This document shows positions 3,151 to 46,576 of a stretch of DNA of 64,000 nt, in pieces. Source of the DNA: Planctomycetes bacterium GWF2_41_51 (GTDB taxonomy: Bacteria; Planctomycetota; Phycisphaerae; Sedimentisphaerales; UBA12454). Within the stretch, counting starts at the first letter, position 1; each line of letters begins with the position of its first letter. Under the pieces are notes generated by a model, which saw nothing but the letters and a program-made list of their open reading frames with translations, was not told the DNA's origin and did not search any database. The stretch lies in contig MHXZ01000018.1 of the NCBI GenBank assembly GCA_001825665.1, forward strand, positions 972 through 64,971, given 5' to 3'. The position numbers and the translations under genes were made by a program.

Positions 3151-3303
3151 AACCTTGGCGACGGTGGATACCGGGGAGAAAAAGAATTTTCTTGCCGTTC
3201 CAATCTTACAATCCTATGTGATAATAATTTTCTTTTTTGATTTAGTAAATTTTATTTCTGATCTTTAATCTTTCTCATTTAATAGCTTTTAAAAGGATTA
3301 ATA

Positions 3304-3972
3304 TTAATTTTTAAATTTAGAAAAGTTAGCATCTTTTGGAACCTCATAATTGATATATTGCGCAAACCTTCTAACAAAATCAGAATCGTCTTCGGCGATA
3401 TTTTTAGTTATGCCAAAATATTCCTTCGCTATACCTTCAACATCTCTATATAAAGGACAACTACTCTTAAACTCCAATTCCATTCGGTCTCTTGCAGCAA
3501 TTATTTTGATATCTTTTTCAAAATTTTTCTTAATAGTGAAACTAATTAGATAGGTAATTATTGAAACCATAATGACAAAAACAATACTAATAATAATTCC
3601 TTTTTGTAAACTCTTTATAAAAGGAATATCATCCTTTATGAAAAGTGCACCCAATTGAAACCCTAGAACAAAAATTATAAGAAAAACACTCACAAAAGTA
3701 TCTGATTTCTGGCTCGCTTTATCAGATATAATAGCAACGGAAGGCCATCCCATTGCAGAATAATGATAAGTAGATCGTAATATCTGTTCGGCACTGGTAA
3801 TTAAAGCCTTAGAGAGAAATAAAATGGCAATAAACCCTAAAAGAGTTGCACATAAATTTAAAAATTTAGCAAAATCCATTTTTTTATCCTTAGCAATTTC
3901 ATAATTAATCTTTACATTTAATATGTCATTGTGTTTTACATTAAATATTTGATTTTTCCTCTGTTGCTGCAT
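3304..3972 (-). CDS. Hypothetical multi-TM protein (AT-rich gene)
   Basis: ORF with 3-4 hydrophobic helices. Visibly more AT-rich than its neighbours. No recognisable domain. Confidence 0.4.
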   Translation of the reverse strand: MQQQRKNQIFNVKHNDILNVKINYEIAKDKKMDFAKFLNLCATLLGFIAILFLSKALITSAEQILRSTYHYSAMGWPSVAIISDKASQKSDTFVSVFLIIFVLGFQLGALFIKDDIPFIKSLQKGIIISIVFVIMVSIITYLISFTIKKNFEKDIKIIAARDRMELEFKSSCPLYRDVEGIAKEYFGITKNIAEDDSDFVRRFAQYINYEVPKDANFSKFKN

Positions 3973-4198
3973 CCATGAAGCTATCCGATTTTACTCTTTT
4001 ATTTTCCTTCTTCAATTAAAAATCTTTCCGCGCATCTAACGTTACCGCCAAACAACAAAACCTATAACGAGATGTTACCGCCATCGATACCGATACTGAA
4101 AATATCAGGAACCACATCCTGATCCTCAGAATCTGATTTCTTCACGAAATTTTCATTATTCACTCTTCACTTTTAACTATTCACTTTATTTTATCCGT

Positions 4199-4226
4199 CC
4201 ATTTTGGCCATCCCTCCCCAAAATGG
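4199..4226. promoter_or_regulatory. Perfect 9-bp inverted repeat CCATTTTGG-N10-CCAAAATGG (candidate enhancer/UAS or small hairpin)
   Basis: Read directly from the sequence. It lies about 200 bp upstream of the sigma54 promoter. The AAATGGTC half-motif recurs at 4291-4298. Confidence 0.35.
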
Positions 4227-4397
4227 TCGTTTTATTCTAACGGTTTTAAAACAAACAACTTGCAAAATACGCATATTCAAAATTCGCCTGAAATGGTCAT
4301 TGCCGAGCTTTTCTGGTTTTATGCCTCAAAATTTTTATCATTTCATAAGTCTTGTTATTACAAGCAGTTAAAAAATATAAAAAATTGTTTTCTGCAC

Positions 4398-4464: not shown

Positions 4465-4884
4465 ATGCTCGTCCTTGTTAAAGCAAACGTTTTAGTCTTG
4501 GGATTTGGAGGAAGAAGCGATGCCTTGAAGGCGTTACCGATTCGCAAGTTGTTTGCTGAAACTGGTTTTGAAGCCAGTCGTTCTTTAAAAAATGAAAAAG
4601 TGGATGGTGTGATTAGTCTATGGAATTTGCCGGATGCACCGGCTGGAAAGTTCCTGCTAAACTTAAGGTTGGCAAAACCTTATTTGCCTATTATTGCGGT
4701 GGTTGATGCTGACAATATTGAGCAGGAAATCGCAGCCAGAAGTATCGGCTCAACAGCCGTTTTAAGTAAAAACGTCGATAACGATGTTCTTAAACGGACG
4801 ATTATAGAAATTCTTGGACTTGGCGACACCAAAGAAATCCAGAAACTCTGTGCCATTGCAGACGATGAAAATCGTCATATCTGA
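4465..4884 (+). CDS. Small receiver-like (CheY-fold) protein, probably a pseudo-receiver
   Basis: The alternating beta/alpha pattern and LPIIAVV..AVLSKNVD resemble beta4/beta5 of REC domains. By-eye alignment places GG instead of the acidic pair and no Asp at the phospho-acceptor position. Confidence 0.4.
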   Translation: MLVLVKANVLVLGFGGRSDALKALPIRKLFAETGFEASRSLKNEKVDGVISLWNLPDAPAGKFLLNLRLAKPYLPIIAVVDADNIEQEIAARSIGSTAVLSKNVDNDVLKRTIIEILGLGDTKEIQKLCAIADDENRHI

Positions 4885-5454: not shown

Positions 5455-5506
5455 GGCCCCGGCCATAAGATCACTGTTCGGTCTTAGGTCGGGGCCGGTT
5501 TTTTTT
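5455..5506 (+). terminator. Rho-independent terminator
   Basis: A 10-bp GC-rich stem (GGCCCCGGCC / GGTCGGGGCC, one G-U) is followed by GG and T8. Confidence 0.8.
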
Positions 5507-5626: not shown

Positions 5627-7324
5627 ATGAAAAATATCGATCTTGAAAAATATTCTTCAGCTTTCACTTTGGCGGATATGGAAATTTTTGTATTTCCGGA
5701 ATTGATGTATTCGCTGCTTCTTGCCAATATAATGAGTCCTTTGATTTGGAAATGGCGAGAGGATAAATCATTCAAAAAACTCGAAGGCAAAGACCCATAT
5801 AAAAAATTGATGCGGCTCCGCCAGTTTATCATGGATGAATTTGAATTTAATCTCGACCTTGAAACATGGGGATTGACGGATAAAAAATCAGAAATAAAAA
5901 GATTTGAAAATTTTCTCACAGAGAAGGAGATTTCCGAAAGTAATGCTCTGTTCGGATACGAAGGCGATAAATATTATTATGATGTAGATATCAGAAAACA
6001 TTTCGGCCTCGATAAATATACTACCGATATAATTCCCTACTGGAAAACCGAAACTGTCGAAGCTATGAACGCCTTTCGGCATAAGAAAGGCTATAAAACG
6101 GGCGCAGGCGAATGTGTTTCGCTGTCAACTTTGTATGCGGCGGCAGCGTTTATTGTCTGCGGCATACCACTTGAAGATATTTTTTTAATTCTCACTCCTT
6201 TGCATTCACAGAATTATATAGATATCAACGATGGCATTATTACAAACAACAGAAGACTCGTAACCAAGGCGATGTGGTTCAACGGCACTGAAACTTCCGA
6301 CAAGGCCCAGCGTGCTCTGCGCAACGAACAAATAACAATGGTCGCTCATACAAGCGGGCTCATCCATTGCCTGTATAAAGACGCTACAATTAACAAAACC
6401 GAATACCAAAAATTCCTCGGCAAGCTTAATAATTATCTTTATTATCCTCTCGAACCGTTAGGCGTCGCCAATTTCCTGCGCAGCAAAGGTCAGTACCAAA
6501 AACATTTCCAGTTCTGCCGTGACTGCCGCGGCAACGCGCAATTTATCAAGGCCGAAAAACTGTTTTCGTATGAGCATGGCAGCAATTTCAGGGTTTGCGA
6601 TCCTACCCATGAAAAACTTCTTGCGGAAGTGCACGAGGAAGATTTCTCAAATCACGAATATGCAAAAAGAATCCGCTGCGACCAGTTTAAGGAATATATG
6701 GGCAAAAAGAAACCGGACATAAACACTGAAGATGGGCGTAAAGAACTTGCGCACGTTTTGTCAGATTATATTCCCGATTCCGAAAAATTCGTCGCCGAGC
6801 TTTACGATTTTCTGCATATCGAACCGAGACTGCCGAGTGAAGATAAAAATTATATCAATGGCGAACCGATAAAAATCACGCCGGATATGAGCAGAGAGCA
6901 GATAATCGATTATCTCAAAAGCATAAGAGATAAAAACACAATTGCCGATTTAGCCTTTTACGCATACCGTGATATGGAAACCTGCGATTGGCAGCCCTAT
7001 ATAAAATCCGCAATTGAACGAAGTCCTGTATCGATTGGAATGACTAAAGATAAATCAATACAGGAATGCTTCGATTGGCTTGCAAATATGCCCAATGAAT
7101 CGATATATGATAACAAAAGACTTGCCCAGCCCGATGAAGTTGCAAATTATGGCCGCGGCGATGGTATCGAAAAAGCAATCACCCTCGCAAATATTATCCA
7201 TAAAAGAGAACCAACCAAAAAAATAGATATCAATATCAATAAAGAAAAAGTTGTTTTGACTGCCGACGAAAAATTTGAATTTGAAAGCCCAAAAGGATTT
7301 GAGAAAGATATAATAATATCTTAA
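5627..7324 (+). CDS. Hypothetical protein with a transglutaminase-like cysteine-protease core
   Basis: GAGECVSLSTLYAAAAFIVCGIPLEDIFLILTPLHSQNYIDIND fits the Cys...GIP...His...Asp order of the transglutaminase-like fold. The rest is unrecognised. Confidence 0.45.
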   Translation: MKNIDLEKYSSAFTLADMEIFVFPELMYSLLLANIMSPLIWKWREDKSFKKLEGKDPYKKLMRLRQFIMDEFEFNLDLETWGLTDKKSEIKRFENFLTEKEISESNALFGYEGDKYYYDVDIRKHFGLDKYTTDIIPYWKTETVEAMNAFRHKKGYKTGAGECVSLSTLYAAAAFIVCGIPLEDIFLILTPLHSQNYIDINDGIITNNRRLVTKAMWFNGTETSDKAQRALRNEQITMVAHTSGLIHCLYKDATINKTEYQKFLGKLNNYLYYPLEPLGVANFLRSKGQYQKHFQFCRDCRGNAQFIKAEKLFSYEHGSNFRVCDPTHEKLLAEVHEEDFSNHEYAKRIRCDQFKEYMGKKKPDINTEDGRKELAHVLSDYIPDSEKFVAELYDFLHIEPRLPSEDKNYINGEPIKITPDMSREQIIDYLKSIRDKNTIADLAFYAYRDMETCDWQPYIKSAIERSPVSIGMTKDKSIQECFDWLANMPNESIYDNKRLAQPDEVANYGRGDGIEKAITLANIIHKREPTKKIDININKEKVVLTADEKFEFESPKGFEKDIIIS

Positions 7325-7333
7325 TAAGTAAGT

Positions 7334-8875
7334 ATGGATAAGCAATTTAACGATAAAACTAACAATATGACCGAAGAACAGGTGCGATGTCTTACACGAT
7401 TTAAAATGCGTCGTTTTTTCGATGAAATTGAGAAAAAGGCAAAAAGACTTAAGCCCGAAAAATTTATTCCTTATGTTCTTAAGTTTTTTCATAATCCGAT
7501 GAGAAGGGAGATAATTGGTCCTCATACAATTTTGCAAGCAATAGAAGCAAATTGTGCTTATCACAAAAGTGGATACGATGAAGAAATTACGCATAAAAAA
7601 TTCGCTGATATAATTAACCTAATAATGAAATCTGAAGAGGAGAATGATTTTTATTTATGGTCAATCCATAATAGATTAGAGATTTTTTTTCAATTTATAA
7701 ACAGAATACAAATTGAAGTTCAAAAGACGGGCTTTTCTAAGTATTATTTATCGCGATATTGGAATTTATTTTATGACAATGATCATATACGAAAAATGCA
7801 TAATGATTTTGAAAATATTTATAAAATATCTGTAGAAAAATGGTTTTTGTGTTCATTTGCAATGTATGCGATGTTTGCAAAAGACTTTATCATACCCAAA
7901 GAATTTAAAATTTCTTCAAGTATGAGTATCGATGAAAATGACATTAGCACATATTTAAATTTTAGTTGTTATTCTGTCGCAGAAATACAGGAAAGATATT
8001 TTGAAACAAGAAAAAATATTAAAGAAGAATTTCATTTTCTTGTAAGAACAGTATTTGTAGAAAGGCCAATTGTTTTATTAGATGGCGATCAATTGGTTGC
8101 GCCAGTTCCAGAGTTGTTATTCCGTCATATGGGACATGGATTAAATGATTTATTTGAAAAAATAGATTCTTCTTACGGATGTTATTTAGGTAAAGCTTTT
8201 CAGGAGTATACAAAAAAAACATTAAATTGCCTAAGTAATGTAGTTCTATATTCAAATGAAGAGTTAGAAAAATTATCCGCAGGAGACAAAAGTTGTGATT
8301 TTCTTTTGGCTACACAGTCAGAAAATATCTTAATTGAGTGTAAGGCGATTGACTTAAAAGTTAGAACTCTGACAGAAAATGCTATATTTAACAGTAATGC
8401 GTTTTCTAAAATTAAAGATGGAATCTGTCAAATTGATAATACATTGAATAATATCATGAATGGGAAATTGTGTTTGCCTGGAATTGATACAAAAAAACCA
8501 TTCTTAAAGATGGTTGTTACTTTTGGTGAAATGTTTGGGTTTAACAGTGATTGGATATTTAATAAAATGTGCCCACAAATAAACTATGATGAGGAAAAAA
8601 ATCTTAAGCCAATGATTTTCTCAATAGCAGGACTTGAAAAGTTTGTGTTGTATATAGAAAATTCAAGTGAATCTCTCATTGATATTTATCATGCAAAACG
8701 GAAAGATGGATATTTTGCGACAGGTGATTGGGATAATTATTTAAGTAGTAAGATTGCTTCTATTAAACCAATAAAAAATGATATAAATTTTCTTAATGAG
8801 GGCTTTGATAGTATGCTTGATAAATTCGAAATTGATTTTGCAGGTAGAGAAAATATTTTAGATGATCATGACTGA
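7334..8875 (+). CDS. Hypothetical protein with a PD-(D/E)xK nuclease-like motif (AT-rich gene)
   Basis: FQEY...SCDFLLATQSENILIECKA fits the E...D...ExK restriction-endonuclease-like signature. The start is 10 bp after the upstream gene, and the gene is visibly AT-rich. Confidence 0.45.
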   Translation: MDKQFNDKTNNMTEEQVRCLTRFKMRRFFDEIEKKAKRLKPEKFIPYVLKFFHNPMRREIIGPHTILQAIEANCAYHKSGYDEEITHKKFADIINLIMKSEEENDFYLWSIHNRLEIFFQFINRIQIEVQKTGFSKYYLSRYWNLFYDNDHIRKMHNDFENIYKISVEKWFLCSFAMYAMFAKDFIIPKEFKISSSMSIDENDISTYLNFSCYSVAEIQERYFETRKNIKEEFHFLVRTVFVERPIVLLDGDQLVAPVPELLFRHMGHGLNDLFEKIDSSYGCYLGKAFQEYTKKTLNCLSNVVLYSNEELEKLSAGDKSCDFLLATQSENILIECKAIDLKVRTLTENAIFNSNAFSKIKDGICQIDNTLNNIMNGKLCLPGIDTKKPFLKMVVTFGEMFGFNSDWIFNKMCPQINYDEEKNLKPMIFSIAGLEKFVLYIENSSESLIDIYHAKRKDGYFATGDWDNYLSSKIASIKPIKNDINFLNEGFDSMLDKFEIDFAGRENILDDHD

Positions 8876-9785
8876 AAACGCCAACAGGAAGTTCAATATT
8901 GCCGGAACTGCGTTTGCGGTCTCATCGCTTTTTTTTGGTGTGCCGGGTCCGCTGATTATAAAATATATCGCTCCGCATATAGATGTCTGGACACAGAATT
9001 TTCTCCGTTATGTTGTTGCTGCCGCGGTATTGATTCCTTTTGCGCTGATATCACGCGAAAGGGCGATTTTTAATAAAATTATCTGGCGAAAAACTTTGAT
9101 TATCGCATTTATCAATGTCATAATGCAGTGTTGCTGGGGTGCGGCGTTCTATTACATCAATCCGGCCTTTATAACACTTTTGGCAAAATCCTCAATTTTT
9201 TGGACTTCCGCGATTTCGCTCATTTTCTTTGCCGATGAACGGCTGTTAGTTAAAAGCAGAAATTTTTGGCTGTCTTTTTTTATCGTCGTAATCGGGATTA
9301 TCGGCGTAACTGTTTTCAAAAACGATTTTTCAACCAAAGCATCAATCATCGGTATCGTTTTAACGCTTGGGTTTGCTTTCAGTTGGGCGATATACACGAT
9401 ATCCATAAAAGTTTTGCTGAAAAGCAGTAATTCCACCACGAGTTTTGCGGTGGTATCGGTATATACAGCGATTGCTCTCGGTATTTTGGCTTTCGTATTC
9501 GGCAAACCGCAGCAATCCATGGCTATGTCTAATTTCGGCTGGTTTCTTCTGGCCATAAGTGCTGTTACGAGTATTGCCGGTTCACACAGCACCTATTATG
9601 CAGCGATAAAAAGGATAGGCTCGACCATTCCGCCTCTTATTGTTCTCGCCCAGCCGTTTCTGGTTTTGCTGGTTTCCAGAGTGGTTTTCAACGAATATCT
9701 TAACGCATATCAATGGTTTTTCGGTTTATTACTCATTGCAGGCTCAGCACTTGCAATCAAATCTCAGGATTACCTGAATAGATAA
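8862..9785 (+). CDS. EamA/DMT-family transporter
   Basis: About 10 TM helices in two similar halves, as is typical of drug/metabolite transporters. Confidence 0.65.
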   Translation: MIMTENANRKFNIAGTAFAVSSLFFGVPGPLIIKYIAPHIDVWTQNFLRYVVAAAVLIPFALISRERAIFNKIIWRKTLIIAFINVIMQCCWGAAFYYINPAFITLLAKSSIFWTSAISLIFFADERLLVKSRNFWLSFFIVVIGIIGVTVFKNDFSTKASIIGIVLTLGFAFSWAIYTISIKVLLKSSNSTTSFAVVSVYTAIALGILAFVFGKPQQSMAMSNFGWFLLAISAVTSIAGSHSTYYAAIKRIGSTIPPLIVLAQPFLVLLVSRVVFNEYLNAYQWFFGLLLIAGSALAIKSQDYLNR

Positions 9786-9873: not shown

Positions 9874-10203
9874 ATGACTGAAAAAACAAAAAAAATAGTG
9901 TATGAAAAACAGGCGGAAATATTAAAGGCGCTGGCTCATCCGGTTCGTGTCGCTATTCTTTATTTTCTTAAGGATGGCGAACAGTGCGTCTGCGATATCG
10001 CAAAGTATGTCGGCTCTGAACGGTCAAATGTTTCAAAGCATCTTTCCGTTTTAGTGTCCTGCGGCGTTCTGGATTTTCATAAAGAAGGACTAAACGTAAT
10101 ATATCGTTTGAAAGCCAGATGCATTATGGATTTTTTTGAATGTATAACCACTTGTCTCAAGCAGCAGGCAAACGAAAATATAAAACTCCTCAAGGCTATG
10201 TAA
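9874..10203 (+). CDS. arsR: ArsR/SmtB-family metalloregulator
   Basis: Winged HTH with the metal-site motif EQCVCDIAKYVG..SNVSKHLSVL. Confidence 0.85.
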   Translation: MTEKTKKIVYEKQAEILKALAHPVRVAILYFLKDGEQCVCDIAKYVGSERSNVSKHLSVLVSCGVLDFHKEGLNVIYRLKARCIMDFFECITTCLKQQANENIKLLKAM

Positions 10204-10204
10204 T

Positions 10205-11374
10205 ATGAGCATAAAAGCTGAAAGTAAAAAATTAATTCTGATAATTGCCGTTTTTCTTTTCATTTATTTTTTACCAATCGGCAATACGCGTTTTGATAAC
10301 GCCATTATGCAATCGCTGGCTCTTATTAAATGGTATGCAAGAGAGCATGTGCTTCTTTGTCTTATTCCGGCGTTTTTCATAGCGGGGGCTATTTCAGTTT
10401 TTGTCAGTCAGGCTTCGGTTATGAAATATCTTGGCGCAAAAGCTAATAAAATCCTTGCGTATGGTGTTGCATCGGTTTCGGGAACTATCCTTGCGGTTTG
10501 TTCCTGTACTGTTCTTCCGCTGTTTGCGGGGATTTATAAGATGGGCGCCGGATTAGGGCCTGCTTGTGCGTTTTTATATTCCGGCCCGGCGATAAACGTT
10601 CTTGCGATTATTTTAACTGCGAGAATTCTCGGTTTCCAGTTAGGTCTCGCGCGAGCAATAGGCGCAATCCTTTTCAGTATTGTAATTGGTTTATTAATGC
10701 ACTTTATTTATCGAAAAGAAGAAAACCAGAAAGCCGAAAATGCAATCGCTATGCCCGAGGCGGAAAAGAGCAGGCCGCTTTGGCAGAACGGTTTATATTT
10801 CGCGTCGATGGTCGCTATTTTGGTTTTCGCGAATTGGGCAAAACCGATTCAGGAAAGCGGGGCATGGGCTGCTGTTTACTCTGTTAAATGGATTATTACC
10901 GCGGTAAGTCTTGCTGCTTTGTTTGTTTTTCTTTTTCTGTGGTTCAAAAAAGATGATATGGTTCAGTGGACAAGTTCGACGTGGACTTTTACAAAGCAAA
11001 TTTTACCTTTACTTTTCGGAGGTGTTATTGTAGCAGGCTTTTTGCTCGGCACCCCTAGCGGCGAAGGTATAATACCTTCAAAATGGGTTTCGGCGGCAGT
11101 CGGCGGCAATTCAATTCGTGCCAATTTGTTCGCATCGGTTGCGGGTGCATTTATGTATTTCGCGACTTTGACGGAAGTTCCAATCGTTCAGGGGCTTGTC
11201 TCGGCCGGTATGGGTAAAGGTCCCGCTCTTGCGTTATTACTCGCAGGTCCGGCTCTTTCGCTGCCGAGCATGCTCGTTATCCGCAGCGTTATGGGGACTA
11301 AAAAAACAATTGTATTTGTCTCGCTTGTCGTTGTAATGGCGACTATTTCGGGAATGATTTTTGGAGCGTTCTAA
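10205..11374 (+). CDS. Permease of the ArsP/COG0701-type family (vicinal-Cys permease)
   Basis: Multi-TM protein with a CSC motif in a TM helix (ILAVCSCTVLPLFAG), sitting in an ars operon. Confidence 0.65.
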   Translation: MSIKAESKKLILIIAVFLFIYFLPIGNTRFDNAIMQSLALIKWYAREHVLLCLIPAFFIAGAISVFVSQASVMKYLGAKANKILAYGVASVSGTILAVCSCTVLPLFAGIYKMGAGLGPACAFLYSGPAINVLAIILTARILGFQLGLARAIGAILFSIVIGLLMHFIYRKEENQKAENAIAMPEAEKSRPLWQNGLYFASMVAILVFANWAKPIQESGAWAAVYSVKWIITAVSLAALFVFLFLWFKKDDMVQWTSSTWTFTKQILPLLFGGVIVAGFLLGTPSGEGIIPSKWVSAAVGGNSIRANLFASVAGAFMYFATLTEVPIVQGLVSAGMGKGPALALLLAGPALSLPSMLVIRSVMGTKKTIVFVSLVVVMATISGMIFGAF

Positions 11375-12186
11375 TGGAATCTAATGAAAAAATAAGGGAA
11401 GCGGTTCGCAAGGGATATGGCGAAATTGCCAAGGGCAGTTCGTGCGGCTGCTGCGGCTCATCATCTCCATCTAAACTTGCCAAGGGAATCGGCTATACGA
11501 AACAGGAACTTGCTGCTTTACCCGATGGCGCGAATATGGGGCTTTCCTGCGGCAATCCTACTGCAATTGCTAATCTTCAGCCCAGCCAGGTTGTTTTGGA
11601 TTTAGGCAGCGGCGGAGGGTTCGATTGTTTCATCGCCGCTAAAAAAGTCGGCAAAAAAGGAAAAGCAATCGGCGTGGATATGACTCCGGATATGCTCAGC
11701 AAAGCAAGAGTGAACATTTCGAAATTTACAAAAAAAACAGGTCTTGCCAATGTCGAATTTCGACTCGGCGAAATTGAACATCTTCCTGTCGCTGATAAAA
11801 GTGTCGATGTCGTTATCTCAAATTGCGTAATCAATCTTTCACCCGCAAAGCAGCAGGTCTGGAATGAAATCGTCCGTGTTTTAAAACCGAAAGGCAAAGC
11901 CTGTATTTCCGATTTGGCTCTAAAATCACCTCTGCCCAAAAAAGTTTTAAAATCTGCGGCCGCTTTGGTTAGCTGCGTCGCAGGTGCGGTACTGATTGAT
12001 GATACAATCAAAATGGCCAGGAAAGCGGGCTTAAAGAAAATCGACATCGAAGAAAAAGTATATAATATTGATGTAATGGCCGATTGCAGCGATCCGCTTT
12101 ATAAAGAGGTTAAGCAATATCTGCCAAAAGGCAAAAAACTTTCAGATTACATCGTAAGTATAAATGTTACGGCATTCAAGCTGTAA
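11374..12186 (+). CDS. arsM: Arsenite S-adenosylmethionine methyltransferase
   Basis: SAM motif [13 protein letters not shown] plus the conserved Cys positions ([26 protein letters not shown]). Confidence 0.85.
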
Positions 12187-12196
12187 GGGTATCAAT

Positions 12197-13288
12197 ATGA
12201 CAGAAGTAAAAACAAAAAATCTTAATGTTTTTGAACGGTATCTTACGTTATGGGTGATTCTTTGCATTATTGGCGGAATTATTTTAGGCAAAGTTGCGCC
12301 AGGTTTCGCGAAATCTCTTGATGCGATGGCAATTTATGTCGATGGCGCTCCCGTCGTTTCGATTCCAATCGCGATTGCACTTTTCTTTATGATGTACCCG
12401 ATAATGGTCAAAATTGATTTTGCCGCAGTCGTAAAAGCCGGCAAAAGTCCCAAACCCGTTCTGCTGACGCTGGTAGTTAACTGGTGTATCAAACCTTTTA
12501 CTATGTTTGCAATCGCGTGGTTTTTTCTTGGCGTGGTTTTTCGAGGCTTCCTTCCCGGAACGGAAATCGTAAAAGACGGTACGGAAGTCGAACTGTTCCG
12601 CTCTTATATTTCCGGCGCGATTCTGCTTGGCATTGCACCTTGCACTGCTATGGTGCTTATGTGGGGTTATCTCGCAAGAGGCAATCAGGGACATACATTG
12701 ATAATGGTTGCGATAAATTCGCTCACAATGCTCGTACTCTATGGTCTGCTTGGCGGCTGGCTGCTTGGCATAAATCGTATGCCTGTGCCGTGGCAGGCGC
12801 TTCTTTTATCAATCAGCATTTATGTTGCTCTGCCGTTAGTTGCTGGCTATTTCTCTCGCAAATGGGTAATTGCCGCAAAAGGCAAAGAGTGGTTCGAAGC
12901 GAAATTCCTCCACGTCCTTACACCTATATCAATTATCGCTTTGCTCGGAACGCTGGTGCTGCTGTTCAGCTTCAAAGGCGAAACGATTTTGAATAATCCG
13001 CTTACGATTCTCTGGATTGCGATTCCGCTTTTTATCCAGACAATTTTAATATTTGCGATAACTTATTTTCTGGCGAAGCTGCTGAAATTCTCTTATGAAG
13101 ATGCCGCGCCGTCAGCTATGATTGGCGCATCGAATCATTTTGAAGTTGCAATTGCGACTGCGACAATGTTGTTTGGCTTATCAAGCGGCGCCGCTCTTGC
13201 GACAGTTGTCGGCGTTTTAATTGAAGTACCAGTAATGCTTATGCTCGTCAAGATTTGTTTAAGAACACAAAAATGGTTTAAACGATAA
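12197..13288 (+). CDS. acr3: Arsenite efflux permease, ACR3 family
   Basis: [13 protein letters not shown] signature and about 10 TM helices. The ATG at 12197 is preferred over the 12164 extension that overlaps arsM. Confidence 0.85.
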
Positions 13289-13299
13289 AAGGTGTGAAA

Positions 13300-13533
13300 A
13301 TGAAAAAAATACAAATACTTGGAACAGGTTGTCCGAAGTGCAAAAAACTTGCCGAATGCGCCGAGCAGGCTGCCAAAGAAATGGCAATAGAATACCAGCT
13401 CGAAAAAGTTACACAAATCAATGATATTATGAAATTCGGCGTTATGATGACTCCTGCTCTGGTTATCGATGGACAGGTTAAAGCTGTGGGTAAAGTACTG
13501 ACTGTTGAACAAATAAAGGAAACACTAAGATGA
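13300..13533 (+). CDS. Small thioredoxin-fold redox-active disulfide protein (CPKC)
   Basis: KIQILGTGCPKCKKL...PALVIDG is typical of the small thioredoxin-like proteins that accompany COG0701 permeases. Confidence 0.75.
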   Translation: MKKIQILGTGCPKCKKLAECAEQAAKEMAIEYQLEKVTQINDIMKFGVMMTPALVIDGQVKAVGKVLTVEQIKETLR

Positions 13534-13967
13534 AAAAAATGCCTAAAATAATTGCTGTATTACTTCTTGCATCGTCAGTTGTGGCGGTAATAATGCTGAA
13601 GAACAAAGAGAATAAATCGCAAGCAGTCGCAATAGAAACTCCTCCGGCTGTTATCTCTGAATCTAATCAGCCTGCTCAGCCGCAGAAATTGCCGAAACTT
13701 ATCGAACTTGGCGCAGACAAATGTATCCCCTGCAAAATGATGAAGCCTATACTCGACGAACTCACAGCGGAATACAAAGGCAAACTCGATGTGATGTTTC
13801 ACGATGTATGGAAGGAACCGGCTTACGCTGAAAAGTATAACATCGAAATTATTCCCACACAAATTTTCCTCGGACCCGATGATAAAGAACTTTTCCGTCA
13901 TCAGGGTTTCTTCGCTAAAGAAGAAATTTTAACAAAGTGGAAAGAACTTGGGTTTGAATTGAAATAA
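13530..13967 (+). CDS. Membrane-anchored or exported thioredoxin-family protein (CIPC)
   Basis: N-terminal signal anchor followed by a thioredoxin fold with the CIPC active site. Confidence 0.75.
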   Translation: MKKMPKIIAVLLLASSVVAVIMLKNKENKSQAVAIETPPAVISESNQPAQPQKLPKLIELGADKCIPCKMMKPILDELTAEYKGKLDVMFHDVWKEPAYAEKYNIEIIPTQIFLGPDDKELFRHQGFFAKEEILTKWKELGFELK

Positions 13968-13969
13968 TT

Positions 13970-14668
13970 ATGCAGGAATTATTTACACAATTGACTCGTG
14001 CGGTTGAAAATACATGGTTGATTGCTCTTACAGCATCATTCATCTGGGGCATTTTAAGCATCTTATTGAGTCCATGCCATCTTGCGAGTATCCCGCTCAT
14101 CGTCGGCTTTATTGATCAGCAGGGAAAGATATCAACAAAGCGGGCGTTCTGGATTTCCACTTTATTTGCGGCAGGCATTCTTATAACTATCGCTCTTGTA
14201 GGTGTGATTACCGCAGCGGCAGGGCGGATGATTGGCAATGTCGGCAGGTATGGAAATTATTTCGTTGCTGCCGTTTTCTTTATCGTAGGACTTCTTCTGC
14301 TTGATGTGATTCCAATGCCGTTTTCAGGCCCCGGCAAAATCGGTATGAAGCAGAAAGGTTTATTGGCTGCATTTATTTTAGGGCTTGTTTTTGGAATCGC
14401 GCTTGGCCCCTGTACTTTCGCGTTTATGGCGCCGATGCTCGCTGTTACTTTCAAAACCGCTTCCACTAATCTCTTTTACGGCATTTTACTTTTAGTCGCT
14501 TACGGCATCGGCCATTGCTCTGTAATTGTTTTCGCAGGAACCTTCACCGAGGTTGTTCAGCGTTATATGAATTGGAACGAAAAGTCCAAAGGCGCGGTAA
14601 TCCTCAAAAAAATCTGCGGCGTACTTGTCCTTGCGGCGGGCCTGTATATGATTTATACTGCTCCTTAA
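13970..14668 (+). CDS. ccdA: CcdA/DsbD-family thiol-disulfide electron transporter
   Basis: Six TM helices with the two conserved Cys motifs LSPCHL and LGPCTFA. Confidence 0.8.
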   Translation: MQELFTQLTRAVENTWLIALTASFIWGILSILLSPCHLASIPLIVGFIDQQGKISTKRAFWISTLFAAGILITIALVGVITAAAGRMIGNVGRYGNYFVAAVFFIVGLLLLDVIPMPFSGPGKIGMKQKGLLAAFILGLVFGIALGPCTFAFMAPMLAVTFKTASTNLFYGILLLVAYGIGHCSVIVFAGTFTEVVQRYMNWNEKSKGAVILKKICGVLVLAAGLYMIYTAP

Positions 14669-14748
14669 GAACTAAATCCTGGACGATAAAAAGAAAGATG
14701 CTACTTTGACTAACGGATATGAGACGTCGATTATCAGAAATAATGAAC

Positions 14749-14796
14749 TTGACAGCATTTTTTTGTATTATAATACTTCGTTATATGGCGAAGTAT
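14749..14796 (+). promoter_or_regulatory. Sigma70-type promoter (TTGACA ... TATAAT) overlapping an 8-bp inverted repeat (candidate ArsR operator)
   Basis: TTGACA at 14749-14754 with TATAAT downstream; the spacer is shorter than optimal. ATACTTCG-TTATATGG-CGAAGTAT lies at 14773-14796. Confidence 0.55.
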
Positions 14797-14806
14797 AGGA
14801 GGTAAA

Positions 14807-15166
14807 ATGCTCGACGTATTAAACATTACAAAGGCAATGTCGGACGAAAACCGGATTAGGGCATTAATGATGCTGACCGGCGGTGAACTCTGCGTTTGCC
14901 AGATAATTGAAATGCTCGGATTAGCCCCATCAACAGTGTCGAAGCATATGTCCATTCTTCGACAGGCCGGGCTGGTTAAGACACGCAAGGAAGGCCGGTG
15001 GATTTATTATCGGCTCGCTGATAGTAAAGCTCTAAAAGCGAGTGAAATACTCCGCTGGCTGGATAAACATTTGAAAAACGATAAGCGTATTTTAGACGAT
15101 GTTAAACAACTGCGGCAAATACAAAAGATTAGCAAAGATGAATTATGTCACTGCTATAAGAGTTAA
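14807..15166 (+). CDS. arsR: ArsR/SmtB-family metalloregulator (second copy)
   Basis: ELCVCQIIEMLGLAPSTVSKHMSILRQAGL motif. Confidence 0.85.
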   Translation: MLDVLNITKAMSDENRIRALMMLTGGELCVCQIIEMLGLAPSTVSKHMSILRQAGLVKTRKEGRWIYYRLADSKALKASEILRWLDKHLKNDKRILDDVKQLRQIQKISKDELCHCYKS

Positions 15167-28773: not shown

Positions 28774-30719
<1,946 letters not shown>

Positions 30720-30727
30720 TATTTTGT

Positions 30728-30784
30728 TTCTCATGTTTAATATGTGACATTTGAAGTTTAATATTCAGCTTCTCATGTTTAATA
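30728..30784. promoter_or_regulatory. 15-bp direct repeat TTCTCATGTTTAATA (x2, 42 bp apart) with a third partial copy
   Basis: Exact copies at 30728-30742 and 30770-30784, with GTTTAATAT at 30756-30764. They lie in the 200-bp gap between fcl and the AT-rich assembly genes. Confidence 0.4.
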
Positions 30785-30929
30785 AATGGTTTCTTAAATA
30801 TCATATAAGGCATTTGATGTTGGTTATGCGGACGTTGAAATTCGAAAATAGCTTTTTTAGTATTGAAACAGCAGTTTTTAGTTATCGGAATAAAAAAACT
30901 ATACTGAGGATGAAAAGTTGTCGGGAGTT

Positions 30930-32399
30930 ATGAAAAAAAATCTCATTATTCTTTTTTTATTTTTTGGTTATTCCTGTTGTAATGCACAATATGATGTTGA
31001 TGATGTGCGTATTCAGGGAGATTCTACCCTGATGGGAATGAAAATTGAAAGCTCTTTTTTTTCTGACGGAGCTTTTTTGATCGAGACGACAGGTGCAAGA
31101 TTTGAATATGTCAAGGGCGAGTTAAAACTTTATCAGGGACTTGATAACAATAACAGAAGATTTCTTTCCACAATAATTTTTGAAAATGAACCTAATTTTA
31201 TTAAAGTTGAATCGCTTGATGATCATATTATTTTCTGGTCAAAGGACCTAAATATAGGTATCTACGGTGATTCAACAGTTATCATTTCACCTAAAAAATC
31301 CCAAGATCTCAAATGCAAAGGCAATTTTAAGCCTGATTACGAAGGCAGATACAAAGGAGAGCTTCTACTTATTGACGATAAAGGTGGTATGGAGATATAT
31401 CCCCAGAGATATGAAGCTGGGTATAAAATTAAAACTATCGAACTTGGTAAAGTAGAATGGGTTGCAGATTACGAATTAAACGCAAAAGAACGTGTTATGA
31501 TAGCTGCATTTCCCGGTAAAAAATTCAATTGGGAAGATAGTTTTAATACCAGAATAGTTGTTACGCATGGAGCGATGGGGTTGGGAGAGGGAAACATATA
31601 TGGTGAAATGCCCCCGAATTCCACAATTGAAAATTGGGCGCAAAACTTTGACGTTTTAGTGCTTTTTTATAAAGGTCTTTATGAGCGACCGGAAAAAGAT
31701 ATTAAAAACTTACGATCACATGGTCCTTATATAATAGAAAACATTCCTGAATTTCGAAGACTGATAACTACGGCTCATAATGTTGATTTAAAAGTAGTTA
31801 CGTATGTGGGTTTTTTTGAATATTATCGTAAGTTTCATAATGCTGAACCATTTCTTGAGCAGATAAAAAAACTAAAACAACAATATGGAATAGATGGAGT
31901 TTATATAGATGGGCTTTCATTCGATCATAATCAAAACCTAGATAGTAATAAAATTTTAAATTGGGAGATTGTGAGACGAATCAGGTCTTTGTTTGGTAGT
32001 GAAGGCGTAATTATTCTGCATGGTACTCACGGAGGCTTGGCAGTTGAAACGGCTCCCAATATTGATGCATATTGCAGTGCGACCTTAAATGGTGAGGGCG
32101 TTCCATTTCAAACTGTCGAGGATGATTATATTAAATACAATGTAAGAAAATACGGTATTTCAAATACAATTGGTTTATGGCGGCCCGATGGAAAACATCC
32201 CCAAACAATAACATACAAAGAGATTATAGATACTATATTAAAAATGAATTGTAGGGAAGCCACGTATGCTCATGTTCCTTTAGATAAAGCGCCAGTAGGT
32301 AAATATAAGTGGGGAAATGGAATAAGTAGTGCATATTCATATTATTTGCGACGGCTTAAACATTTAGAAGATTTATATCATTCTGGAAAAGTTAGATGA
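30930..32399 (+). CDS. Hypothetical exported protein (possibly glycoside-hydrolase-like TIM barrel)
   Basis: Signal peptide MKKNLIILFLFFGYSCCNAQ. The GIDGVYIDGLSFD segment is reminiscent of glycosidase-like barrels, but the family is not recognised. Confidence 0.35.
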   Translation: MKKNLIILFLFFGYSCCNAQYDVDDVRIQGDSTLMGMKIESSFFSDGAFLIETTGARFEYVKGELKLYQGLDNNNRRFLSTIIFENEPNFIKVESLDDHIIFWSKDLNIGIYGDSTVIISPKKSQDLKCKGNFKPDYEGRYKGELLLIDDKGGMEIYPQRYEAGYKIKTIELGKVEWVADYELNAKERVMIAAFPGKKFNWEDSFNTRIVVTHGAMGLGEGNIYGEMPPNSTIENWAQNFDVLVLFYKGLYERPEKDIKNLRSHGPYIIENIPEFRRLITTAHNVDLKVVTYVGFFEYYRKFHNAEPFLEQIKKLKQQYGIDGVYIDGLSFDHNQNLDSNKILNWEIVRRIRSLFGSEGVIILHGTHGGLAVETAPNIDAYCSATLNGEGVPFQTVEDDYIKYNVRKYGISNTIGLWRPDGKHPQTITYKEIIDTILKMNCREATYAHVPLDKAPVGKYKWGNGISSAYSYYLRRLKHLEDLYHSGKVR

Positions 32400-33364
32400 A
32401 CGAAAAGGTATCTTTGATTTGTACAACATATAACTGTAAAGATGAATTAAATGCAGCGTTAAAAGTTTTTACTACTGAGAAAAACCTTGTCTTAGTTGAG
32501 GAAATTTCAATTGTTGATGGAGGATCAAAGGATGGGACATGGGAACTTTTGCAAAAATGGTCAAAAGAAATAGATAAAATTAAAGTTTGTCAAATTGTTG
32601 GTGCTAATATTTCGAAAGGTAGAAATGAAGCTATAAAACGAACTAAATCAAATATAATTGTGACATTTGATAGTGGAACAGAATACGGTGATAATTGGCT
32701 TAAATTTATATTAGAACCCCTTTTATCAAAAAAAACGGAAATAGCTAGCGGTCTTACGGTCTGTTGCGGAGATAGCATCTTTCAAAAATGTCTTGCTGCT
32801 TTAGGTGATAGACATCGTGCCAGTATAAAACCTTCTCACAGAGGAGTTGCTTATTACAGGTATGTATGGGAGGAGATAGGAGGTTATCCTGAGTATGTAC
32901 AAGCCGGCGAGGATACTTGGTTTAACACGCAATGCGAGAAAAAGGGTTATAAGCATGTTAATGTTTCCGAGGCAAAGAATTATTGGAAAGTTCGCAACTC
33001 ATGGAAAAAAGTTTTCAAAATGCAATATCGTAATATTAAGGGGCAGGTAATATTGGCTGAACCTTCAGGAATTGTCATTAATTTTGGAATAACTAGTGTA
33101 TATTTAGTAATAATAATATTATTATTACTTGGGTTTATATTTCCAGTTTTATTTTTGATGGCTGCAATTTTTAGCTTTATGTATTTCTTTAAAAGACTAT
33201 TTGGAAAAAGAAGATGGCGGTTTTTTGTTAATCCTTTGCATTTTATAGTTGGTCTTTATGTCTTAAATGGATGGGATATGGGAAACTGCATAGGAACAAT
33301 AGAAGGTTTGTTTATACTTATTCATACAAAATTTAAGAAAAAAATTTATGGAAACTCTTTCTAA
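32396..33364 (+). CDS. Glycosyltransferase family 2 with C-terminal TM segment
   Basis: SLICTTYNCKDEL...VDGGSKDGT and GED motifs. Confidence 0.7.
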   Translation: MNEKVSLICTTYNCKDELNAALKVFTTEKNLVLVEEISIVDGGSKDGTWELLQKWSKEIDKIKVCQIVGANISKGRNEAIKRTKSNIIVTFDSGTEYGDNWLKFILEPLLSKKTEIASGLTVCCGDSIFQKCLAALGDRHRASIKPSHRGVAYYRYVWEEIGGYPEYVQAGEDTWFNTQCEKKGYKHVNVSEAKNYWKVRNSWKKVFKMQYRNIKGQVILAEPSGIVINFGITSVYLVIIILLLLGFIFPVLFLMAAIFSFMYFFKRLFGKRRWRFFVNPLHFIVGLYVLNGWDMGNCIGTIEGLFILIHTKFKKKIYGNSF

Positions 33365-34886
33365 TCAAAATATCATTCAAAGCGATCAGCAGCAATTTAA
33401 GCCGAATTTGCGAATAAATTGGGTATTTTTATTTTTTTGTATCGCTGTATGTATTGTCTTAACTATAATAATTGATACAAGAAGCACTGCTGGTTCTCTC
33501 TTTATTGCCGCCAGATATTTTGTTTGTATTGTCAGTGTTTTATCCTTATTTATGCCGGTTCGATTTGGCGTACCGATAATTTTCTTAATTCTTGCAATAG
33601 GAGTGGATGCAACCCAATCAGTATATGAAAAATATGCAATGGGGGAAATTATTTCAGCAAGTTTGTGGCAGTTTCGATATGGTCCTTTTAATCCAAGTAT
33701 GTTTGTTGCATTTATTTTAGGTATTCATATCTTAAAAGTTCATTGTTTACAGCTTGATAAAATAGTGAAACGCGCATTGATTTGGTTTGTGACTGTTCCC
33801 ATAATAACAGGTTTTGTTTATGGTGGTATGACGTCTATAGCAAGCAGAGTAGAAATTTTACAAGATGTAAGATTTGCCATCTTATTAATGATGAGTATCA
33901 TATTATTCAGGGGATATCTAAAGAAATTTCCACAAATGATTGGTTTTATGCTGACTCTTTTTGTGGCATACTTTGTTGCAAGACATGCAGTTGATTTATT
34001 TTATTGGTTTACAGGTTTCGGTTCTGTTATGGGTGGAGCTACAAGAGTAAGTGTCGGTTCTACAAAAGGGACAATTAATATACTTTTGTTATTTACAATA
34101 GTATTATTTTTCCGTGAAAAAAGATTTATTCTTGGCTTTGCATTGGGCCTATGTTCAATTATTTTGCTTGTTGTTTATGCCGGCAGACTGCTATGGTTAA
34201 CCAGTGTATTAGGATGTATTCTACTTTTCATAGTTATAGGTGCCAAAAGATTTATAATAGGACTTCCTATAGTTATGATTTGCGGAATAATCGCTTTTAA
34301 AATACTTGGAACTTACGGGTATGAATCACTTGAATACGCATCGCAAAGAGCCGAATCTTTTAAAGGGGGTTCAGTTGGAAATTATCTTCAAAGGCTTGAT
34401 GGATTAAGATATGGCGAGCTTGTAAACGTATTTAATACCAATCTAAAGAGAGGTGCCGTTTTATGGGGGAGCGGTTACAGCAGTTATTATACAGATGATG
34501 CAGCCCCATTTCCTGCAACATTAATCGCAGCATTTGCGGATTACAGTGCTATGAGTGGTCTTTTTTATCAAACTCATGAATATTTTAGCCATATATATTT
34601 AAAACATGGACTTATCGGGCTATTTATAATATCCTCTCTATGGCTTACACCTGCATGGCGATGTTATAAAATGTTTGATAAAAATGCAAAAGGTTTGTTC
34701 TATTCTGTGCTTGCCTGCTTTATTGCGTTTTCTTTCCTTGCGATGATCCAATTTTATTGGACAGGGCAGGGGTTATTTATATGTGGTTTTATGATTGCAT
34801 CCCTGATAACCATATCTGAAATACTGGAAGAAAATCACACCAGCTTTGAGCCAGTCATCAGTCAGAAAGAGTTAATAGAAAGTTAA
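33348..34886 (+). CDS. O-antigen polymerase/ligase-like (Wzy-type) integral membrane protein
   Basis: More than 10 TM helices with a large loop, sitting next to wzx in a glycan locus. Confidence 0.55.
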   Translation: METLSNQNIIQSDQQQFKPNLRINWVFLFFCIAVCIVLTIIIDTRSTAGSLFIAARYFVCIVSVLSLFMPVRFGVPIIFLILAIGVDATQSVYEKYAMGEIISASLWQFRYGPFNPSMFVAFILGIHILKVHCLQLDKIVKRALIWFVTVPIITGFVYGGMTSIASRVEILQDVRFAILLMMSIILFRGYLKKFPQMIGFMLTLFVAYFVARHAVDLFYWFTGFGSVMGGATRVSVGSTKGTINILLLFTIVLFFREKRFILGFALGLCSIILLVVYAGRLLWLTSVLGCILLFIVIGAKRFIIGLPIVMICGIIAFKILGTYGYESLEYASQRAESFKGGSVGNYLQRLDGLRYGELVNVFNTNLKRGAVLWGSGYSSYYTDDAAPFPATLIAAFADYSAMSGLFYQTHEYFSHIYLKHGLIGLFIISSLWLTPAWRCYKMFDKNAKGLFYSVLACFIAFSFLAMIQFYWTGQGLFICGFMIASLITISEILEENHTSFEPVISQKELIES

Positions 34887-34887
34887 T

Positions 34888-36189
34888 ATGGCTCAAACAT
34901 TAATGGGCGTATCTATGTCAAGCAACCGGAAAAGACTCTTAAGCAATTTTATTTCATTAAGTGGGGTAAGAATTGCAGGTTTTATTTTTCCATTGATTAC
35001 TTTGCCCTATCTTGTGCGAGTATTAGGGCCTGAAAAGTTTGGGCTAATTGCGTTCGCACAGGGGCTTATTCAATATTTTGTGATAATTACAGATTATGGT
35101 TTTAATTTATCCGCAACAAGAGAAATCTCGATTAATAGAAATGATATCAAGAAAATATCTGAAATATTCTATTCCGTAATTCTGGTTAAACTTGTTTTGA
35201 CAATCATAAGCTTTGTTATTTTATCATTAATAGTATTTAGTTGGAGTAAATTCAGAATTGATTGGCAAATATATTTCCTAACATTTGGAGTCGTCGTTGG
35301 CCAAGTTATATTCCCTATATGGTTCTTTCAGGGGATGGAAAAGATGAAGTATATTGCTGGTCTTAATATTCTAACAAAATTTGTTTTTACAATAGCTGTT
35401 TTTGTTTTTATTCATAAGGAATCTGATTATCTCTGGATGCCGATTTTATATTCATTTGGATTTATTCTTTCAGGAGTATTGGGATTATGGTTTGCATTAT
35501 ATTCTTTTAAGATTATATTTGTGTTTCCATCCTATAATGAGATTGTACATCAACTTAAGGAAGGATGGCATATTTTTATTTCCACAGTAGCAATGAGTTT
35601 TTATACTACTAGCAACATTGTAATTCTCGGATTTTTCACAAACAATACTATAGTTGGTTATTATAGTGGAGGTGAAAAAATCGTCAGAGCAATACAATAT
35701 GGATTATTGTATCCATTATCTCAGACAATTTATCCGCATATTGGAAAACTTGCCCATGAATCCAAAGAAGCAGCCCTTGTTTTTGTTAGAAAAGTAATCG
35801 GACTCGTGGGAATACCAGTTTTATGTGTGTCTGTGGCGTTATTAGTATTTGCTCCTAGCATAAGTAATATAGTTTTAACAAGAAAGTTTGAAGAAAGTAT
35901 ACCTGTTATGTGTATTCTTGCACCCTCGATATTTGTAATTTTCTTAAATAATCTTTTTGGAATACAGATCATGTTAAATTTTGGATATCAGGCTTCTTTC
36001 CAAAAAATAGTTTTAATAGGAGGGGCAATTAATATTGTGTTAGTTATAATACTTTCGATCATGTTCCAGCATATAGGTGTTGCTATCGCAGGACTCATTA
36101 TGGAAACATATATTACCTGCCACGAGTTAGTTTTCCTTTATCACAAAGGAATAAAATTTAGTTTCAATTTTTCCAAACAGAGCATTTAA
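34888..36189 (+). CDS. wzx: Polysaccharide flippase (Wzx, MOP superfamily)
   Basis: 12 or more TM helices and the typical N-terminus LLSNFISLSGVRIAGFIFPLITLPYLVRVLGPEKFG. Confidence 0.8.
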   Translation: MAQTLMGVSMSSNRKRLLSNFISLSGVRIAGFIFPLITLPYLVRVLGPEKFGLIAFAQGLIQYFVIITDYGFNLSATREISINRNDIKKISEIFYSVILVKLVLTIISFVILSLIVFSWSKFRIDWQIYFLTFGVVVGQVIFPIWFFQGMEKMKYIAGLNILTKFVFTIAVFVFIHKESDYLWMPILYSFGFILSGVLGLWFALYSFKIIFVFPSYNEIVHQLKEGWHIFISTVAMSFYTTSNIVILGFFTNNTIVGYYSGGEKIVRAIQYGLLYPLSQTIYPHIGKLAHESKEAALVFVRKVIGLVGIPVLCVSVALLVFAPSISNIVLTRKFEESIPVMCILAPSIFVIFLNNLFGIQIMLNFGYQASFQKIVLIGGAINIVLVIILSIMFQHIGVAIAGLIMETYITCHELVFLYHKGIKFSFNFSKQSI

Positions 36190-36201
36190 GCCAAGACTAA
36201 G

Positions 36202-38352: not shown

Positions 38353-39253
38353 CTGTCTGATATTCGATATAAAAAGATTCGCGATATCTGATGGTCCGGA
38401 GATAAGAACAACCATTTTTTTTAAAGGATGCCCATTGAAATGTCCGTGGTGTCACAACCCCGAAGGTATTTCATTCAGACAGGAGTTTTTTTGGAGAAGA
38501 ACAAAATGTTCAGAATGCAATGAATGCATTCGTATCTGCCCGCATGGATATGATCCTAAAGATGTGAAACGATTAAATGAAAAATTTGAAGAATGCTTAA
38601 ATTGTAGAAAATGTGTTGATATCTGTCCTACCGGAGCAATTACTATAATCGGAAAAGAAATCGAATTGGCAGATCTAATTGAGTTGATAAGCAGAGATAT
38701 CGATTATTATGCGGATAGCGGAGGCGTGACGTTTTCAGGAGGAGAACCGCTTGCACATATGTCATATTTGCAGCGTGCATTAGAAGAATGTAAACGCATC
38801 GGAGTCAACACTTGTATTGAAACTTCCGGATTTTGTTCTAAAGAGGATTTATTGTTAATTATAGACTATGTAGATTTTTTTATGTTCGATCTAAAATTAG
38901 CAAATAAAGAAGAAAGTCAAAGAGTCATAGGGGCAAATATTGATAAAATTGTTGAAAATTTAAATATAATCACGAGCGAGAAAAAATGTGTTTTGAGACT
39001 GCCAATGATTAGAGATCTTACGGATACTAAAGAGAATATAGAACTCTTACTTGCTATATTGCGGCAAATTCCGAATAAAAAGAATTTGTCAAGAGTGGAA
39101 TTGCTGCCATATCATAAATTAGGTGAAAGCAAGTATATATGCTTAGGTAAAGAAACATTGAAAGTTTTTGAACCTTCCACAGAATCGAATCTAAATTGTA
39201 TTAAAGAAAAGATATCATCACTTAATTATAATGTCAGTATTGAGAGATTTTAA
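38339..39253 (+). CDS. Glycyl-radical enzyme activating protein (radical SAM)
   Basis: CPLKCPWCHNPE (CxxxCxxC) plus two ferredoxin-type clusters, CSECNECIRICP and CLNCRKCVDICP. Overlaps the GRE stop. Confidence 0.85.
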   Translation: MISSNCLIFDIKRFAISDGPEIRTTIFFKGCPLKCPWCHNPEGISFRQEFFWRRTKCSECNECIRICPHGYDPKDVKRLNEKFEECLNCRKCVDICPTGAITIIGKEIELADLIELISRDIDYYADSGGVTFSGGEPLAHMSYLQRALEECKRIGVNTCIETSGFCSKEDLLLIIDYVDFFMFDLKLANKEESQRVIGANIDKIVENLNIITSEKKCVLRLPMIRDLTDTKENIELLLAILRQIPNKKNLSRVELLPYHKLGESKYICLGKETLKVFEPSTESNLNCIKEKISSLNYNVSIERF

Positions 39254-39255
39254 TA

Positions 39256-41365: not shown

Positions 41366-41381
41366 AAAAGGTTTTTGAATT

Positions 41382-42653: not shown

Positions 42654-42661
42654 GGATTATT

Positions 42662-46568: not shown

Positions 46569-46576
46569 CAAATCAA

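Follow-up and report, generated by a model that had tools for sequence, protein, structure and literature searches.

GAPS1 is a single-protein anti-phage defence with a PD-(D/E)xK nuclease, described by Mahata et al. for the Vibrio parahaemolyticus VPaI-6 protein WP_005477165.1, in which the substitutions D313A and K328A abolish protection, the T7 capsid protein Gp10 acts as the trigger and dormancy is the outcome (10.1101/2023.03.28.534373). Phage protection, triggering by the capsid and dormancy are known only for the GapS1 proteins of Vibrio and E. coli (10.1101/2023.03.28.534373). Here we analysed a 64,000-nucleotide (nt) stretch of DNA, hereafter the window, from Planctomycetes bacterium GWF2_41_51 (assembly GCA_001825665.1, contig MHXZ01000018.1, positions 972 to 64,971 of the forward strand), in which two adjacent open reading frames (ORFs), ORF-A and ORF-B, follow a structured RNA with its own terminator. 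An earlier, sequence-only reading of this locus had proposed that the RNA and the two genes resemble a type III toxin-antitoxin (TA) or RNA-guarded defence locus, or that the two genes form a standalone anti-phage module. Our analysis favours a different interpretation, to which we assign a probability of about 0.7, namely that ORF-B is a lone, horizontally acquired GapS1-like sensor-nuclease and that ORF-A and the RNA are unrelated neighbours.

ORF-B and GAPS1 are both single proteins of about 450-510 amino acids (aa), collinear over about 380 residues, with the PD-(D/E)xK site in the C-terminal third of each, and both are encoded by solitary, horizontally distributed genes. In contrast to GAPS1, ORF-B lies off any GMT island, is wedged inside a host operon and is known here from its sequence. 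The D...ExK catalytic core is also shared with the NERD (PF08378), Shedu SduA (PF14082) and HsdR-N (PF13588) families, but no member of the ORF-B family reaches a Pfam threshold, and those families have nothing equivalent to the large N-terminal region of ORF-B, in which E71, Q126, Q130, R141 and W170 are conserved. The features that define the pair are as follows.

5627..7324, plus strand: ORF-A, 565 aa, a conserved Phycisphaerae-wide protein with no function assigned, lying outside the defence gene
7334..8875, plus strand: ORF-B, 513 aa, a GapS1-like single-protein PD-(D/E)xK nuclease by sequence similarity; accessory gene and candidate anti-phage defence
8294..8344, plus strand: predicted PD-(D/E)xK catalytic core of ORF-B, C321-D322...E335-x-K337, from conservation in 146 members
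8429-8431, plus strand: codon of Q366 of ORF-B, downstream of the core

Both ORFs are genuine genes and not chance reading frames, because searches returned many homologues for each. The basic layout had been described correctly, as two large ORFs on the same strand do follow the RNA terminator, with an intergenic gap of 9 nt (7325-7333) instead of the 10 claimed, and the motifs that had been quoted were all located in the translations of ORF-A (GECVSL at residues 161-166, GIP at 179-181, PLH at 191-193 and IDIND at 198-202) and ORF-B (CDFLL at 321-325 and LIECK at 333-337). The NCBI model of ORF-B (A2Y10_06880) is a protein of 502 aa that starts at Met12; however, the first 11 residues of the 513-aa form, MD(E/K)xFxD... 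(window 7334-7366), are kept in homologues, and the start at 7334 is therefore the better call.

Family assignment and catalytic core of ORF-B

The sole family match of ORF-B in NCBIfam was NF047931, antiphage_GapS1 (E=1.7e-28, 99.7 bits), with residues 33-410 aligned to positions 2-385 of the 455 in the profile. All of 10 sampled ORF-B relatives also matched GapS1 and no other family, with scores of 29-164 bits and alignments that usually reached profile position about 440. A word-indexed search recovered 21 homologues of ORF-B, and an exhaustive profile search returned 2,053 cluster representatives when cut at E<=1e-3, of which 958 also passed E<=1e-10; they come from Planctomycetota, Clostridia, Paenibacillus and others. 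By profile similarity, ORF-B belongs to a large and divergent clade that is sister to the single-protein anti-phage family of GAPS1 (GapS1) and, because GapS1 is its only family match, it is best read by analogy as an anti-phage gene.

Searches of other collections added little to this assignment. ORF-B had no Pfam match above threshold, no match in the PDB by sequence or by profile and just a marginal match in PHROGs, to a family of unknown function, and nothing was found when it was searched against phages. PADLOC gave no match for ORF-A or ORF-B, in a release that is older than GAPS1. With the query P0200, tblastn against plasmids gave weak matches to hypothetical proteins only, and a phmmer search returned no protein named GapS1.

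Alignment of 146 diverse family members showed that D322 (99%), E335 (99%), K337 (100%) and Q366 (100%) are conserved, and the spacing from D to K is 15 residues, the same as that between D313 and K328 of GAPS1. The nuclease signature first proposed for this protein, E...D...ExK, was confirmed by the alignment for its D...ExK part, whereas its first E corresponds to E243, which is conserved in just 53% of members. Among the 21 closest homologues, sub-threshold Pfam matches were to NERD (8/21), SduA_C (3/21) and HSDR_N_2 (2/21), all of which are PD-(D/E)xK families.

Insertion site, distribution and mobility of ORF-B

Loci of relatives fetched for comparison are given here as L-numbers. The gene that bounds ORF-B on its downstream side in the window is the following.

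8862..9785, plus strand: EamA transporter gene (Pfam EamA, E=1.3e-23), downstream flank of the ORF-B insertion

L003 and L007, where ORF-A is 85% and 81% identical to the window copy, lack ORF-B; there the ORF-A stop codon is followed after 3-4 nt by EamA-ArsR-ArsP, the operon that comes after ORF-B in the window. The junction of ORF-A and EamA is exactly where ORF-B lies in the window, L001 and L013. In L096, with an ORF-A about 66-67% identical, ORF-B lies 9 nt past ORF-A and is followed by different genes. What is inserted between ORF-A and EamA is hardly more than the ORF-B coding sequence itself, and the insertion is patchy within one Phycisphaerae clade. The adjacency of ORF-B to ORF-A is confined to one sub-clade, and in one clade the 3' end of ORF-A serves as a site of recurrent landing or exchange.

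At L096 4007-4994, and also in L097 and L098, a DUF6788 and NTP_transf_8 gene pair comes next after ORF-A and ORF-B in place of EamA. It looks like further accessory cargo at the same site, possibly of a TA-like kind, and its presence points to a variable hotspot at the 3' end of ORF-A.

The composition and history of ORF-B both set it apart from its neighbours. The GC content of ORF-B is 0.289 (0.22 at third codon positions) in comparison to 0.395 for ORF-A, 0.419 for EamA and 0.388 for the whole window, and in all seven loci measured (7/7) the GC content of the ORF-B homologue is lower than that of its flanks by about 10-12 points. Pairwise identity is flat for ORF-B, at 66-75%, while that of ORF-A ranges from 67% to 89%, and between L001 and L096 ORF-B is 73% identical with ORF-A only 69% identical. 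The lineages that carry ORF-B are not monophyletic on the ORF-A tree. The suggestion that ORF-B is more AT-rich than its surroundings was thus borne out (0.289 against about 0.40-0.42 in the flanks), and horizontal acquisition is upheld by this GC gap together with the ORF-B-free sites of L003 and L007 and identities that are decoupled from those of ORF-A.

Beyond this sub-clade ORF-B homologues stand alone. Those of L009, L010 (the same locus as L105), L012, L093, L095 (the same as L101), L100, L102, L103, L104 and L107 have no nearby ORF-A, which applies to every homologue that is <=53% identical and has a readable locus (10 loci), and these solitary copies span at least nine unrelated gene contexts in which the flanks are unrelated housekeeping genes. 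The copy at L010 7567-9143 (L105 5001-6526) is split by a frameshift into pieces of 122 aa and 380 aa and is a decaying ORF-B homologue among housekeeping genes. Patchy presence, low GC, a decoupled history, solitary contexts and one frameshifted copy are together the signature of a mobile, fast-turnover single-gene system.

Alternatively, ORF-B could be a nuclease of the NERD type with a role outside defence, for example in DNA repair or mobile-element maintenance, that shares only its ancestry with GapS1. Its score under the GapS1 cut-off, its position outside any defence island, the name "NERD domain-containing protein" given to two of its relatives in UniRef and the lack of a PADLOC match, albeit in a release that predates GAPS1, are all consistent with such a role. 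We consider this unlikely, as the homology to GapS1 is nearly full length and extends beyond the nuclease core, and as the gene is patchy at a single site, low in GC, present in one frameshifted copy and faster to diverge than its neighbours. Patchy presence, low GC, frameshifted copies and fast divergence are typical of defence genes.

The tight junction raises the question of whether ORF-A and ORF-B act together as a two-gene defence module, either as a protease or sensor with a nuclease or with ORF-A guarded by ORF-B. Both genes share one strand, no terminator separates them, and the junction recurs in four lineages, spanning about 9-11 nt in three of them (the window, L013 and L096) and 46 nt in L001; the downstream genes differ in L096. 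Their distributions argue otherwise. A scan of one genome per species found an ORF-A relative in at least 596 genomes, and when the 80 species loci of the best ORF-A relatives were fetched and read, ORF-B was carried by just one (L013), so that nearly every ORF-A locus that was read is without ORF-B; conversely, none of the 10 loci with an ORF-B homologue of <=53% identity has ORF-A nearby. ORF-A is also slow-evolving with a host-like GC content, the histories of the two genes are decoupled and GAPS1 acts as a single protein. A joint module is accordingly quite improbable, and the earlier proposal of an anti-phage module can be retained for ORF-B alone, through its GapS1 match, and not for the pair.

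A related possibility is that the recurrent junction marks ORF-B as a guard tied to ORF-A, which would monitor ORF-A (called essential in this scenario) or be licensed by its transcription or translation. The same recurrence in four lineages speaks for this idea and the same separate distributions speak against it, and we regard it as very improbable; if true, ORF-A would be the first host protein to be identified as guarded by a GapS1-type system.

Proposed mode of action and weighing of the GapS1-like interpretation

If ORF-B works as GAPS1 does, its non-nuclease parts would sense a phage component, which for GAPS1 is the major capsid protein, and sensing would switch on the PD-(D/E)xK nuclease domain. 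The activated nuclease would then cut nucleic acid and arrest the growth of the infected cell. ORF-B would be expressed from the host operon of ORF-A and EamA, and it is probably co-transcribed with both genes, because the terminator search found none between ORF-A, ORF-B and EamA in the window and because the ORF-B stop codon overlaps the EamA start (ATG 8862 or 8868, within the 3' end of ORF-B).

Several points weigh against ORF-B as a GapS1-like defence gene. Its 99.7 bits fall far below the curated NF047931 cut-off of 320 bits, and since NCBI membership is defined as a score >=320 bits, ORF-B is a sister-clade relative and no GapS1 member by that rule. Defence activity is attributed to it by analogy with GAPS1, the PD-(D/E)xK fold is predicted from sequence, and the active site was compared with that of GAPS1 by spacing and not by residue-by-residue alignment to a tested GapS1 protein. 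In the window, the surroundings of ORF-B contain no recognisable defence or mobile island, no integrase and no flanking repeat. Finally, the recurrence of the tight junction where the downstream genes of L096 differ could hint at more than a chance hotspot.

What is new here is a divergent GapS1 sister clade in Planctomycetota, as the kind of defence itself is already known. The GapS1-like interpretation would extend single-protein nuclease defence of this type to Planctomycetota, and it concerns some 2,000 cluster representatives of a sister clade, which stay annotated as "hypothetical" under current rules (the NCBIfam cut-off and PADLOC 2023). The clade should be useful for defence-system catalogues and holds no conceptual surprise. 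ORF-A, a domain-less and class-wide protein that deserves attention of its own, and the unannotated RNA of about 620 nt are separate findings.

ORF-A as a conserved core gene

ORF-A has more than 6,104 homologues, with identities of 63% or more throughout the top 120, and its best 80 relatives (58-89% identical) come almost all from Phycisphaerae or from metagenome-assembled genomes of the Sedimentisphaerales type. Across 192 distinct sequences 146 positions are >=98% conserved, with the N-terminal 250 residues being the most conserved part, and no above-threshold match was found in Pfam, NCBIfam, PADLOC, PHROGs or the PDB, the last searched also by profile. ORF-A is a slowly evolving, class-wide core gene without a recognisable domain. 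One further feature belongs to it.

6107..6250, plus strand: putative thiol-enzyme core of ORF-A, G161-E-C163-V-S-L, GIP179-181, H193, D199 and N207-N208

The recurrent neighbours of ORF-A in distant loci are DUF2400 and low-molecular-weight (LMW) phosphatase genes upstream and Rrf2, cupin, hybrid-cluster protein and ferredoxin genes downstream, none of them defence-like. With these neighbours and its presence in at least 596 genomes, ORF-A is a housekeeping-type gene in conserved non-defence contexts, an outcome that the sequence-only reading had itself named as evidence against a defence role.

A gene for an LMW phosphatase or ArsC-type protein lies directly upstream of ORF-A in 19 distant loci, and in the window (9874-15000) and downstream in L001, L003 and L007 there is an arsenic or redox-type operon. 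The operon downstream of the ORF-B insertion encodes ArsR, an ArsP permease, an S-adenosylmethionine (SAM) methyltransferase, an SBF/Acr3-like carrier, thioredoxins and DsbD. These arsenic and redox neighbours may be a coincidence or a hint at the pathway in which ORF-A takes part.

C163, H193 and D199 are invariant, and G161-E-C163-V-S-L, GIP179-181, H193, D199, N207 and N208 are all >=98% conserved in the 192 homologues, a level that 146 positions of the protein reach. In an AlphaFold2 (AF2) model of ORF-A (predicted local distance difference test (pLDDT) 68.7, predicted template modelling score (pTM) 0.63) the C-terminal half is confident, and residues 188-252, which hold H193, D199, N207 and N208, have a pLDDT <50. 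C163 opens a predicted helix (163-177) that is followed by GIP and by a strand (185-191) just before H193, and this modelled order of Cys helix, GIP, strand and His is that expected of a transglutaminase or papain-like core.

Comparison of the model with known structures gave a less definite picture. Foldseek searches of the PDB and BFVD found nothing at E<=0.001, and the top matches, LapG (E=0.12, TM 0.3 on the target), CPR-C4 protease, BDI_1141, menin, vasohibin, Rad4 and NAT, are all of the transglutaminase/papain-like fold class and none is significant. Pfam Transglut_core was seen in 2/32 ORF-A members at E about 0.07, which is no profile match, and a regular-expression search of the fetched loci for canonical transglutaminase proteins of the form GxCxxFA...GIPAR found none.

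ORF-A resembles LapG/BTLCP (PDB 4fgp) and Transglut_core (PF01841, clan CL0125) in having a GxCxxhS motif at what is modelled as a helix N-terminus, the GIP motif, a predicted beta-strand and the invariant His. It differs from these families in its Cys-to-His spacing of 30 residues and in having, within its 565 aa, a large and confidently modelled C-terminal half with no match in the PDB or BFVD, and no significant sequence or structure match was found for it. The transglutaminase or cysteine-protease-like core that had been read from the motifs is weakly supported, by the conserved Cys, His and Asp, by the modelled place of C163 at the start of a helix and by matches below significance (best Foldseek E=0.12; Transglut_core in 2/32). 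On the model and the conserved residues, ORF-A is plausibly, at roughly even odds, a transglutaminase or papain-like thiol enzyme, for which the candidate catalytic residues are Cys163 and His193, with D199 or N207/N208 as a candidate for the third. A C-terminal Alba-like RNA-binding domain was also considered and rejected as too weak, with 18 bits against a cut-off of 25, in 13/32 members.

The upstream structured RNA

Upstream of ORF-A are two features that stand outside the ORF-B system.

4465-4884, plus strand: small receiver (REC)-like ORF; the RNA begins directly after its stop codon
4886..5506, plus strand: upstream structured RNA with its own terminator, given as context only

The RNA is about 620 nt long and ends in a terminator whose hairpin spans 5455-5496 and whose U-run spans 5499-5506. 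The ATG of ORF-A lies 120 nt beyond the end of the U-run, in line with the distance of about 120 bp that had been estimated. It contains four imperfect modules, each a CU-rich motif plus a hairpin, spaced 100-144 nt apart. RNAalifold gave 126 predicted pairs, 17 of them with compensatory changes, and long-range pairing, and a search of Rfam found no matching family. The RNA is conserved in at least 11 loci and is an independent, self-terminated structured non-coding RNA.

Each module comprises a UUUUCUCCUCCUCCC motif followed by a GGGUUGUGAUCGGACAGUGAUA...CAGCCC hairpin. For the invariant 5' AUAGGGAGGGAG of the RNA, pairing with a CU-rich motif further away is predicted, and the loop of the terminator hairpin is matched by a complementary 5' segment, AAGACCGAACAG.

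Synteny of the REC ORF, the RNA and ORF-A holds in each of the 13 distinct loci with ORF-A identity >=70%, whether ORF-B is present or not. In about 65/80 loci (<=64% ORF-A identity) neither the RNA nor the REC ORF was detected within 6 kb of ORF-A, and the RNA was not found at any locus where ORF-B lies apart from ORF-A. An obligate link between the RNA and ORF-A was rejected, because the synteny is confined to one family-level clade.

A type III TA or RNA-guarded locus, in which the RNA would neutralise or license ORF-A, ORF-B or both, was suggested by the order of a repeat-containing RNA, an intrinsic terminator and ORFs 120 nt further on, and the 13/13 synteny of the RNA and REC-like ORF with ORF-A would fit such an arrangement. 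The resemblance to ToxIN is superficial and limited to this order of RNA, terminator and protein gene. The RNA had been described as a tandem-repeat RNA, but Tandem Repeats Finder (TRF) found no tandem array in it, and in place of the short tandem repeats (about 36 nt) of ToxIN, AbiQ and CptIN it has the four structured modules with long-range pairing. No ToxN-fold endoribonuclease follows the terminator, and no PADLOC model and no ToxN/AbiQ/CptN family is matched by either protein. Across genomes there is no co-variation of the RNA with ORF-A or ORF-B, as the RNA occurs where ORF-B is absent (L003, L005 and L007) and goes undetected near ORF-A in most lineages. The type III TA or RNA-guarded reading is largely refuted on this evidence, and we consider it extremely improbable.

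Other features of the window and of related loci

Positions 685-3817 of L001, which lie upstream of its ORF-A homologue by about 7 kb, hold an N6_Mtase/Eco57I-type gene of 866 aa, a gene with a PIN domain and an HNH/AP2 fragment, and this stretch has no counterpart in the window. A second low-GC patch of the window (3250-4250, GC 0.28-0.32) holds an ORF of 222 aa on the minus strand (3304-3972) that had no Pfam or PHROG match and may be another accessory gene. Further downstream, a 17-kb block of low GC (30000-47000, 0.32-0.36) is a surface-polysaccharide cluster that encodes a flippase, several glycosyltransferases and a UDP-galactopyranose mutase, and the same block also encodes a glycyl-radical enzyme with its radical-SAM activase.

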